Shown here in pieces: positions 56,121 through 57,254 of a DNA stretch of 64,000 bases (position 1 is its first letter; every line of letters begins with the position of its first letter). Origin of the DNA: a virus; the IMG/VR virus record IMGVR_UViG_3300047491_001507, one strand, 5' to 3'. A program made the translations under genes and the position numbers. A model generated the notes under the pieces. It was given only the letters and a program-made list of their open reading frames with translations. It did no database searches and was not told where the DNA came from.

Positions 56121-57254
56121 CTATGATGAAAAACCACCTAACATGCCGAGTTTGCCTTGTGGTGCAAATCCAACATCTCCTGGCCCTGCTGGTTCTACTC
56201 CATCATAGAAAGTTTTTTGCACATTTGATTGTTTGTATAGAGAATTTAGAAAATCATCATTTTCTTTTTTAATATCCTTACTGCATTTCTTTTCGCATTT
56301 ATCCTCTGCCTTCTCTTCGCATTTATCTTTTGCTTTTTTGTCGCATTTCTTTTCTGCTTTCTTATCACATTTTTCCGCTTTCTTGTCGCAGCATTTACTG
56401 CATTCTTTTTTGCCACACTTGCACTCGTCATTAAGCAACATAGATTCACTTACACGCTTCATTAGCTCTTGAGTGTTTTCGTTAGACATGTATTTGTTGC
56501 AATAATCACTAATTTTCTTTAAGACATCTTGAGCCTTAAGATCTTTCTCGTCCATGTCTTCGTCACCCATGTCTTCTCCATCATCATCATAGCCATAATC
56601 TTCTTCGTCACCCATGTCTTCGTCGCCCATGTCTTCGTCGCCCATGTCTTCGTCGCCCATGTCTTCGTCGCCCATGTCTTCGTCGCCCATGTCTTCGTCA
56701 CCCATGTCTTCGTCACCCATGTCTTCGTCACCCATGTCTTCGTCGCCCATGTCTTCGTCACCCATGTCTTCGTCACCCATGTCTTCGTCACCCATGTCTT
56801 CGTCACCCATGTCTTCGTCACCCATGTCTTCGTCACCCATGTCTTCGTCATCTAGCCCTGCTAAAGATGGGTCTATATTGGCTAAAGTATCTTTCATTCC
56901 ATCGTCGCCCATGTCTTCGTCGCCCATGTCTTCGTCGCCCATGTCTTCGTCGCCCATGTCTTCGTCGCCCATGTCTTCGTCGCCCATGTCTTCGTCGTCC
57001 ATGTCTTCGTCGTCCATGTCTTCGTCGTCCATGTCTTCGTCGTCCATGTCTTCGTCACCCATGTCTTCGTCACCCATGTCTTCGTCACCCATGTCTTCGT
57101 CACCCATGTCTTCGTCACCCATGTCTTCGTCACCCATGTCTTCGTCAGGTGTATGACGACCCATTAAACCGCCAACAACATTGGGCTTGCCCAAACCCAA
57201 ATTGAAATTAGAACCTAAAGATTCTGTCAATAATTGCCATTCTGTATATTTCAT
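56121..57254 (-). CDS. poly-acidic (DEDMG)n repeat protein with C-terminal Cys/Lys-rich CxxKAEKxC repeats
   Basis: 377 aa. Two blocks of about 17 uninterrupted DEDMG/DEDMD pentapeptides encoded by perfect 15-nt repeats; tail CDKKAEKCDKKAEKKCDKKAKDKCEEKAEDKCEKKC. Confidence 0.6.
   Translation of the reverse strand: MKYTEWQLLTESLGSNFNLGLGKPNVVGGLMGRHTPDEDMGDEDMGDEDMGDEDMGDEDMGDEDMGDEDMDDEDMDDEDMDDEDMDDEDMGDEDMGDEDMGDEDMGDEDMGDEDMGDDGMKDTLANIDPSLAGLDDEDMGDEDMGDEDMGDEDMGDEDMGDEDMGDEDMGDEDMGDEDMGDEDMGDEDMGDEDMGDEDMGDEDMGDEDMGDEDMGDEEDYGYDDDGEDMGDEDMDEKDLKAQDVLKKISDYCNKYMSNENTQELMKRVSESMLLNDECKCGKKECSKCCDKKAEKCDKKAEKKCDKKAKDKCEEKAEDKCEKKCSKDIKKENDDFLNSLYKQSNVQKTFYDGVEPAGPGDVGFAPQGKLGMLGGFSS
56551..57146. 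repeat. two blocks of perfect 15-nt tandem repeats (gtcttcgtcRcccat, about 35 units in total)
   Basis: Read directly from the sequence. Blocks at about 56600..56850 and 56901..57146, separated by a 50-nt unique linker. Confidence 0.9.

Follow-up and report, generated by a model that had tools for sequence, protein, structure and literature searches.

A (DEDMG)n-encoding gene from an uncultured huge phage is an expanded member of an unannotated protein family with a leader resembling the T4 capsid-targeting sequence

The 64,000-nucleotide (nt) stretch of viral DNA analyzed here (IMG/VR record IMGVR_UViG_3300047491_001507; hereafter, the window) carries on its minus strand, at 56121..57254, a complete open reading frame (ORF) of 377 amino acids (aa) that contains two long arrays of DEDMG pentapeptides. 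It is a real gene of a roughly 300-kb phage. As judged from sequence and gene order, it is the positional orthologue of 186- to 212-aa proteins of related huge phages and a member of an unannotated family. A preliminary description had treated the gene as an isolated curiosity, but DEDMG-like units are normal in the large, conserved huge-phage family to which it belongs as a hyper-expanded member. The function that we favor, to which we give somewhat less than an even chance, is that of a prohead-targeted internal or core polyanion, whose leader would dock into the core and be cut off after a Glu residue by a protease, leaving the body as a filler or counter-ion.

The predicted protein has a mass of 41,959 Da, an isoelectric point (pI) of 4.05 and a net charge of −112, with 148 acidic residues, 36 basic residues, 41 Met and 11 Cys; its initial characterization as extremely polyanionic and Met-studded was apt. 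Both termini are homologous to those of the family. The conserved N-terminal region (aa 1 to 36; 57147..57254), delimited by family alignments A1 to A4 and position counts, comprises the leader, MKYTEWQLLTE|SL (57216..57254), and the Gly-rich stretch LGLGKPNVVGGLMG. The leader is predicted to form an amphipathic helix (residues 3 to 13 in the AlphaFold2 model) with an L-x-E site, and its pattern is common to six other ORFs of the window and to the internal proteins IPII and IPIII of phage T4. A unit-by-unit walk along the sequence placed repeat block 1 at aa 37 to 116 (56907..57146), a 19-aa nonrepeat island, DDGMKDTLANIDPSLAGLD, at 56850..56906, repeat block 2 at aa 136 to 215 (56610..56849) and a degenerate tail of the acidic array, DEEDYGYDDDGEDMGDEDMDEKD, at 56541..56609. 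Next come two predicted helices (aa 236 to 275; 56430..56549; residues 236 to 255 and 259 to 275 in the model) that carry DYCNKYMSNEN, which corresponds to C(C)NKYMKKE in the family. A Cys/Lys-rich basic block (aa 276 to 332; 56259..56429) follows, with 10 Cys and a net charge of +6 after the −117 of the acidic segment. The conserved C-terminal region, FLNSL...KTFYDG...PGDVGFAPQGKLG...FSS (56124..56258), includes an invariant motif at 56145-56183.

Each of the two blocks is made of 16 perfect 15-nt units. All 32 read GACGAAGACATG followed by GGT or GGC (Gly) or by GAC (Asp), codon 5 being the sole difference, and the variants are grouped in contiguous sub-blocks: 6 GGT (DEDMG), 4 GAC (DEDMD) and 6 GGC (DEDMG) units in block 1, and runs of 6, 1, 3, 5 and 1 GGT or GGC units, all DEDMG, in block 2. 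With the approximately three degenerate units (GEDMG, DEDMD) after block 2, the previous figure of about 35 repeats is a fair one; Tandem Repeats Finder, run on the window, reported 36.6 copies of period 15 at 56602-57147. It is impossible that thirty-two perfect copies arose by chance. The sub-blocked variants and the near-perfect nucleotide identity indicate local, probably recent slippage or unequal exchange and not ancient divergence, in keeping with the very recent slippage expansion proposed at the outset.

Family members were collected by using a 139-aa neighbor gene (57435-57854) to find related loci, which contained acidic, Met-rich ORFs sharing the N terminus of the target, and more were recovered by scanning DNA for a degenerate form of the C-terminal motif. 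A profile with the acidic core trimmed off found 21 proteins, and when 1.84 billion representatives were searched exhaustively by profile, 489 clusters scored at E ≤ 1e-3, with 340 at ≤ 1e-10 and 64 at ≤ 1e-30. The family consensus begins MLSYKQWKxLNES(F/L)GG..LG(L/V)..P...G..GS ... (L/I)xE-A-KKKMKKKM and continues with an acidic low-complexity tract, a (M/C)KKK-type basic block and EExWWNS..NM...K.WDG...EDAL.PP.DPN...PGPGEVGYAPQG(R/K)(I/V)G. Its members are thus laid out as a leader of approximately 45 aa, a variable and disordered polyacidic tract of Met/Gly type, a basic block rich in Lys and a short C-terminal region that is conserved (PGEVGYAPQG). A locus search with the full-length alignment A1 was discarded, as its patterns were drawn from the acidic repeat and led to unrelated acidic proteins (L018 to L025).

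The target has this layout. At its N terminus it carries MKYTEWQLLTESLGSNFNLGLGKPNVVGGLMG, matching the family motif M-x-x-(Y/F)-x-x-(W/Y)-x-x-(L/I)-x-E with the Gly-rich LG..P...G..G, and at its C terminus it matches the pattern F/W..S ... K.(W/Y)DG ... PG(D/E)VG(F/Y)AP.G(K/R).G. Residues G359, V361, G362 and P365 (target numbering) are invariant in 73 sequences. Charge profiles showed the same order as in the family, acidic low-complexity sequence first and then a basic block rich in Lys, the Cys/Lys-rich block of the target being the counterpart of the family (M/C)KKK block.

Gene order gave the same answer. Family members lie on contigs of 100 to 600 kb, including a 546-kb contig deposited as a Crenarchaeota metagenome-assembled genome (member P0009) and the 595-kb "uncultured phage" LR756511.1, and the target occupies the same syntenic slot as the family genes of the 546-kb contig, a 51-kb contig and further contigs. 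The shared order is subtilase, helix-turn-helix (HTH) protein, COOH-NH2 ligase, hydrolase (a primase-polymerase [Prim-Pol] in the window), family gene, membrane-anchored protein of approximately 270 aa, tetratricopeptide repeat (TPR) protein and, further on, uracil-DNA glycosylase. The core of this slot, from the COOH-NH2 ligase through the family gene and the ~270-aa protein to the TPR protein, is present around the target.

Other searches were negative. Profile searches of the target and family members against Pfam, PHROG, NCBIfam and the PDB returned no significant relative, the C-terminal 142 aa of the target found no homologues when used alone as a protein query, and the Prim-Pol found no related loci when used as a probe. 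Among cultured and deposited phages, megablast with positions 50000-64000 gave no match, nor did tblastn with the 139-aa neighbor or the family consensus. The family and its leader are undescribed in the libraries searched, and we found no literature on them. With 489 representative clusters on contigs of this size, naming the family and its parts is useful in itself.

Compared with its relatives, the target is the most expanded and most negatively charged member seen, in which a family-typical acidic unit has been amplified to an extreme, probably recently. Among the 79 full-length members recognized in the fetched sequences, the median net charge is −25 and the minimum −61, against −112 for the target, and its 148 acidic residues exceed the family maximum of 115; its 36 basic residues are near the median of 32. 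Across the family, the number of acidic residues varies together with that of basic ones (r = 0.79). The longest perfect tandem span is 82 aa in the target and at most 52 aa in 163 other sequences, and the expansion roughly doubles the usual protein length. D-(D/E)-M-G is nonetheless a recurrent micro-motif of the family, DDMG, DEMG, EDMG and GDMG being among the commonest Met contexts. Short tandem acidic repeats occur in P0159 (a 22-aa unit, 2.4 copies), P0088 (DMGDEDMGDEEHGDMGDEDMGDE) and the LR756511.1 member (a unit of approximately 16 aa, three copies), and P0160 has an island similar to that between the two blocks of the target (..L..(I/V)DP.LAG(L/F)D). The (DEDMG)32 array is an exaggeration of a normal family feature and not a new invention. 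As a natural extreme, 200 residues of perfect polyanion produced by recent expansion in a protein whose acidic tract is usually much shorter, the target is a good test case for the effect of tract length.

An AlphaFold2 model built on a 73-sequence alignment had a mean predicted local distance difference test (pLDDT) score of 55. Helix 3-13 was predicted with confidence (pLDDT about 85), helices were also placed at 236-275 and 306-343, and the C-terminal motif was unstructured. Both DEDMG blocks were predicted to be disordered (pLDDT below 50), and there were no predicted strands.

The leader links the target to other proteins of the window. ORFs with M(x)xFKxWLE-type N termini lie at 34797-35378 (+; MKFKLWLEN), 38822-39364 (+; MSFKTWLEG), 41115-42854 (−; MGFKDFLNLFE), 42863-43744 (−; MSFKIWLEQE), 44479-45060 (−; MKSFKQFVE) and 45425-45871 (−; MKTFNEWAEE). 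All six are orphans, with no significant match in Pfam, PHROG or NCBIfam. Scanning the six frames of the window with a regular expression for the leader matched 8 of 2,398 Met positions, 7 of which are the first Met of long ORFs, the target included. In 276 kb of related loci the expression matched 14 of 492 long-ORF N termini, against 10 of approximately 9,400 other Met positions, and in 102 kb of unrelated phage loci it matched none of 163 long-ORF N termini. Codons vary among the leaders, arguing that selection acts on the peptide. In P0017 (201 aa), the 45-aa family leader (MMTFREWQILSESAGRFNLGVKTPRSIGVSGSKLAEMGFPPPEE) is fused to an HhH_5/RNA_pol_A_CTD domain and lacks the acidic-basic body, which indicates that the leader is a portable module.

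Phage T4 offers a precedent. Its capsid-targeting sequence (CTS), MKTYQEFIAE, guides internal proteins, as well as foreign proteins fused to it, into the scaffolding core and is removed by the gp21 protease (PMC8442874, PMC3012670, PMC9958956); the annotation of the IpII precursor in record X04567.1 is consistent with such cleavage by the prohead protease. Our leader pattern had been written before T4 was examined, and in 78 kb of T4 DNA the only gene N termini that it matched were those of IPIII, IPII and the orphan gp61.1. Like the target, IPI, IPII and IPIII start with a leader of approximately 10 aa that has an aromatic residue at position 3 or 4, another three residues later, an aliphatic residue and then Glu. 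The T4 internal proteins also resemble the window set in that the leader is found on diverse, unrelated cargo and the genes lie dispersed, at a distance from the head module; a gp21-type protease is present in the lineage, in the related LR756511.1. They differ in that the family leader is longer (approximately 45 aa) and usually has a second LxE-KK site, and there is no homology beyond the leader. As a sequence pattern, the leader is lineage-specific, common to many unrelated proteins and of the same class as the validated T4 CTS.

The distribution of potential cleavage sites fits this picture. An (L/I/M)-x-E motif is present at residues 6 to 20 in 73 of 79 family members, and 51 of the 79 have another [LI].E, with a Lys cluster after it, at residues 34 to 57, against 4.2 expected after shuffling. 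With a median of two [LI]-x-E-type sites per protein, such sparse Glu-ending sites would be the picture of a removable propeptide on an otherwise protease-resistant body.

In the packaging model that we favor, the leader, like the T4 CTS, would let the protein dock in the scaffolding core while the prohead assembles, and a prohead protease of the gp21 type would cleave at the conserved (L/I)-x-E site, behind its Glu (LLTE|S in the target). The freed polyanionic body would serve as DNA-like filler or as counter-ion to internal proteins that are basic and to the basic interior of the capsid, a role analogous to those of T4 gp67 (a polyacid) and gp68 (a polybase), and might afterwards be expelled on DNA entry or be retained and co-ejected. 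Intact survival would be likelier than degradation in the manner of gp22 because there are few internal L-x-E sites. Of the three roles first suggested for the protein, a packaged polyanion is the best fit, given the CTS-like leader, the T4-type head genes in the lineage and a divergent neighbor that is probably a virion neck or fiber protein. The head genes are those of LR756511.1, which has, in addition to a family member at 488200 and 13 ORFs with the leader pattern, a gp21 protease (525953-526621; 5e-23), gp23 (1e-35), gp20 (4e-34) and a gp22-like coiled-coil protein.

Several observations weigh against this model. We infer both packaging and cleavage entirely, for a lineage that is uncultured; the cultured phages searched gave no match. 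The evidence for T4-type gp20, gp21 and gp23 comes from the related LR756511.1, the window's own genome contributing only homologues of the T4 neck gene gp13 and of gp32. In no lineage examined does the family gene adjoin head genes: in LR756511.1 it is 35 kb from the head module, and in one lineage it lies among gp32, UvsX and helicase genes. In T4 itself, however, ipII and ipIII are also remote from the head genes, among denV, nudE, regB and tk. The CTS-bearing internal proteins of T4 are small and basic, which a 42-kDa polyanion of pI 4.05 is not, and its charge of −112 would be electrostatically costly beside packed DNA. The target retains the first cleavage site (LTE, residues 9 to 11) and lacks the second, LxE-KK site. 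The likeness of its leader to T4 is that of a short motif, approximately 10 aa; a match of the N terminus to T4 gp24 (pairwise E = 6e-4) was not confirmed by the family profile (hhalign probability 0.3%) and was dropped. Finally, we found no shared late-promoter motif: TATATATA has only four sites in the window, all intergenic and three of them upstream of leader ORFs, and is overall not above chance, and in the related 595-kb genome no motif was common to the regions upstream of the family gene, the head genes and the leader ORFs.

Two known systems invite comparison. The T4 core components gp67 and gp68 are encoded between portal and protease and are processed by gp21 (PMC9958956). gp67 has a short helical N terminus and a polyacidic tail (net charge −25) and gp68 a polybasic tail; the family has both kinds of charge block in one chain. 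The target gene does not lie between portal and protease, its product is much larger, and its acidic tract is Met/Gly-rich rather than pure Asp/Glu. It did not match Pfam GP67 (PF17634), which T4 gp67 itself matches at 1.8e-48, and LR756511.1 has no gp67- or gp68-like genes at the T4 position. In giant phages of the phiKZ/SPN3US type, many head-internal proteins have N-terminal propeptides that are cut after Glu by a gp21-related protease (PMC9026906). There, however, the cleavage motif is S/A-X-E and no sequence relationship to our proteins exists, while the lineage studied here has T4-like gp20, gp21 and gp23.

The repeat DNA (unit GACGAAGACATGGGY) also has exact matches, over two consecutive units, in nine further viral contigs, where it encodes part of acidic proteins that have just two to four DEDMG units. 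At the two loci whose neighbors were examined (L005 and L008), the gene for this protein has the portal and head-maturation protease genes on either side and lies upstream of that for the major head protein, and the proteins of L002, L005 and L008 match phrog_15696, "virion structural protein." Their N and C termini differ from those of the target, without detectable homology, so the likeness is one of convergent composition in a head-assembly setting and not of shared ancestry. Acidic proteins of the L008 type, between portal and protease, looked by eye like plausible gp67 homologues, but BLASTP (E = 17) and the absence of a Pfam GP67 match spoke against that identification.

The strongest alternative, though we think it unlikely, is that the protein stays unpackaged in the cytoplasm as a polyanionic decoy or DNA mimic, whose disordered acidic tract would sequester DNA-binding proteins of the host (such as restriction enzymes, nucleoid proteins or defense sensors) or chaperone basic phage proteins in the manner of nucleoplasmin, with the conserved terminal motifs as docking sites for partners. 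The extreme charge and predicted disorder of the tract suit such a role, as do the nonstructural gene neighborhoods, including the one with gp32, UvsX and helicase; the co-variation of acidic and basic counts is what would be expected of a polyampholyte with interacting charge blocks. Against it, neither sequence nor fold relates the target to Ocr, ArdA or any solved structure, and a decoy leaves unexplained why the same leader is found on many unrelated proteins and matches the T4 CTS pattern. Ocr (T7 gp0.3) and other DNA mimics share with the target a high density of negative charge. Ocr, however, is a compact folded dimer that imitates bent B-DNA, whereas the acidic region here is predicted to be disordered and matches neither the Ocr nor the ArdA family. 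The suggestion of an Ocr-type anti-restriction protein therefore did not hold up: Pfam, PHROG, NCBIfam and the PDB provided no relative, and AlphaFold2 predicted the repeat to be disordered and not a folded mimic. A decoy could also be packaged first and then injected, in which case this reading and the model of a prohead-targeted polyanion would become one.

It is improbable, in our estimation, that assembly created the array as a whole or its number of repeats as an artifact, the true gene encoding approximately 200 aa like the usual family member or having a different or heterogeneous number of units. An independent Logan assembly of SRR35144455 (contig L031/L034) contains identical neighbor genes and the same gene start and stops two units into the array, a break that is expected of a k = 31 short-read assembler. 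This contig independently confirms the exact onset of the repeat; the copy number is not confirmed by it. The longest perfect period-15 runs in the gene measure 105, 104, 96 and 89 nt. Every k-mer of at least 105 nt is unique within the gene, so the array is resolvable only at k ≥ 105. A collapse at k near 99 to 105 could yield two longest runs of 104 and 105 nt with nothing longer repeated, and the array could thus be a collapsed lower bound, of at least 32 copies. No second assembly of the array was found by exact protein look-up, by probing metagenome and viral contigs with a unique linker or by a protein-level scan with the C-terminal half. On the other hand, the frame is open through 546 nt of repeat between flanks that are both homologous to the family, the variant units form ordered sub-blocks divided by a conserved nonrepeat island, and other family members have tandem acidic repeats too. 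An artifactual copy number would leave the identity of the gene unaffected. The target shows how such genes get lost or truncated in short-read assemblies.

We regard as quite improbable a role as a metal-binding ion buffer or sink, with the acidic Met tract as the ligand for Ca2+, Mg2+ or Cu+ and the Cys/Lys block as a metallothionein-like site for Zn2+ or Cu+. The 41 Met lie at strict five-residue spacing beside carboxylates, Met is enriched family-wide (5.4%), and the basic block has 10 Cys in 57 residues, including CKCGKKECSKCC. Six of the Cys (289, 296, 304, 312, 320 and 324) are spaced by 7 to 8 residues in a degenerate 24-nt (8-aa) CDKKAEKK repeat (Tandem Repeats Finder rows at 56281-56390; AlphaFold2 helix 306-343) that has remodeled the basic block of the target; the preliminary description had noted about six evenly spaced Cys in the tail, but the protein has 11 in total. 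P0160, P0144 and the L028 member have zinc-ribbon-like CxxC...CxxC pairs. No metal-binding family was matched in Pfam or NCBIfam, however; the Cys content is specific to the target (family median, 3), and the gene context has no pointer to metal homeostasis. We give almost no credence to a folded DNA mimic built from DEDMG as a pentapeptide-repeat beta-helix of the Qnr/MfpA type: the period is exactly five residues, but the match to Pfam Pentapeptide_2 (E = 0.0032, 17.7 bits) is below the gathering threshold of 26.4 bits, AlphaFold2 gave no strands and a pLDDT below 50 across the repeats, and the residue two positions before the central hydrophobic one, which must be small in that fold, is Glu in the target. 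The remaining probability lies with functions outside the readings considered here.

Nearly all knowledge of huge phages comes from metagenomes, and orphans make up the majority of their genes. The class of proteins that T4 delivers by way of the CTS includes anti-defense and host-takeover effectors. If the leader were a capsid-targeting signal, it would provide a simple sequence rule predicting which huge-phage orphans are packaged and delivered to the host, and if the proposed mechanism were right, CTS-type delivery of head-internal proteins would extend to uncultured huge phages and to polyampholyte cargo. A bolder generalization, which we consider decidedly unlikely, is that M-x-x-(F/Y)-K-x-(W/F)-L-E is a capsid-delivery code used from T4 to the huge phages and that the family is a single-chain counterpart of gp67/gp68 with an acidic tract tunable by slippage. 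In that event the leader would mark packaged and probably injected proteins, seven in the window with six of them clustered at 34.8 to 45.9 kb, and tract length would be an adjustable filler or counter-ion setting the core volume of the prohead or DNA ejection in very large capsids. The most valuable lead, in our view, is less the repeat alone than the leader "code" together with the clustering at 34.8 to 45.9 kb of orphan ORFs that bear it.

Some further observations concern leader-bearing genes. The layout of those at 34797-45871 is reminiscent of the variable internal-protein loci of T-even phages, and a segment of the 42863-43744 product, DWIISNHDSHGNQFI, presumably resembles a kinase catalytic loop. 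In T4 (NC_000866), gene 61.1 (18966-19130; locus L056) encodes a 54-aa orphan with the CTS-like start MKTFKEFIKE, outside the known internal-protein genes. In LR756511.1, a leader-bearing 165-aa ORF (MLTWTEFLEARQ...; 521964-522461, −), which may be NADAR-like, lies just downstream of the gp23-like capsid gene. The gp20-like portal ORF of that genome (531014-533587, −; 857 aa) has a putative intein-like insertion.

The target gene has a strong, canonical ribosome-binding site, with the Shine-Dalgarno sequence AAGGAG (57261..57266, −) 6 nt upstream of the ATG as read from the sequence. Directly after the stop codon is an intrinsic terminator (56073..56105, −), AAAAAGAGCCGG-AAU-CCGGCUCUUUUU followed by a U-run, with a predicted folding free energy of −25.4 kcal/mol (z = −7.2); the symmetry of its A-run and T-run makes it bidirectional in form. 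Bidirectional terminators had been reported on both sides of the gene. This stands for the 3′ side, but on the 5′ side the 180-bp divergent promoter region has no significant structure (z = −0.13) and no terminator.

The window as a whole is a replication and accessory region of a large phage without close relatives among those deposited, with UvsX, a gp32-type single-stranded DNA-binding protein, DnaB, DNA polymerase, helicases, Prim-Pol, amidoligases and a subtilase. The 139-aa gene used above as a probe (57435-57854, +) diverges from the target and shares its promoter region. It has 198 homologues, and the exact protein is encoded on a 306-kb JGI contig. Homologues that share approximately 60% identity with it score above the gathering threshold for Pfam Gp80 ("podophage GP4 fiber I protein"), and the best matches of its confident AlphaFold2 model (pLDDT 86) are small chains of the Sf14 neck and the Bas63 connector (probability 1.00, template modeling score 0.5 to 0.64, E only about 1e-2), consistent with a product that is probably a virion neck or fiber protein.

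Beyond it, 57929-58747 (+) encodes the protein of approximately 270 aa with an N-terminal membrane anchor and no family match, which is the divergent neighbor of the family gene in most lineages (counterparts in L010, L012, L014, L032, L033, L050 and L052). Also near the family gene across lineages are an Amidoligase_2 protein (422-1456, −), a phiEco32-like COOH-NH2 ligase (54422-55348, +) and an S8 subtilase (51279-52214, +). This set might ligate or modify peptides of some phage protein; that the Glu-rich family protein is its substrate would be pure speculation.

Elsewhere in the window, a 901-aa ORF (30642-33347, +) matches Pfam MVP_shoulder, the shoulder domain of the major vault protein, at E = 1.1e-19, an unusual domain for a phage, and has no PHROG match. 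Four tandem paralogous ORFs (16140-19888, +), with starts of the form MLKKWQITALE, MLKTWQITALE or MLKKWQLKALE, contain internal repeats of 177 to 180 nt (Tandem Repeats Finder) and a recurring NKKLLLEMA(R/K)NGEPRP; their HTH-like Pfam matches are weak and below threshold. An extended −10 box, TGCTATAAT, ends 6 to 7 nt before the ATG of three genes (sites at 40786-40815, 48670-48699 and 56049-56078), namely, those of a helicase (39361-40785, −), a glycosyltransferase-like protein (48700-50625, +) and the Prim-Pol (55371-56048, −), which are possibly expressed as leaderless early transcripts driven by the host sigma-70.

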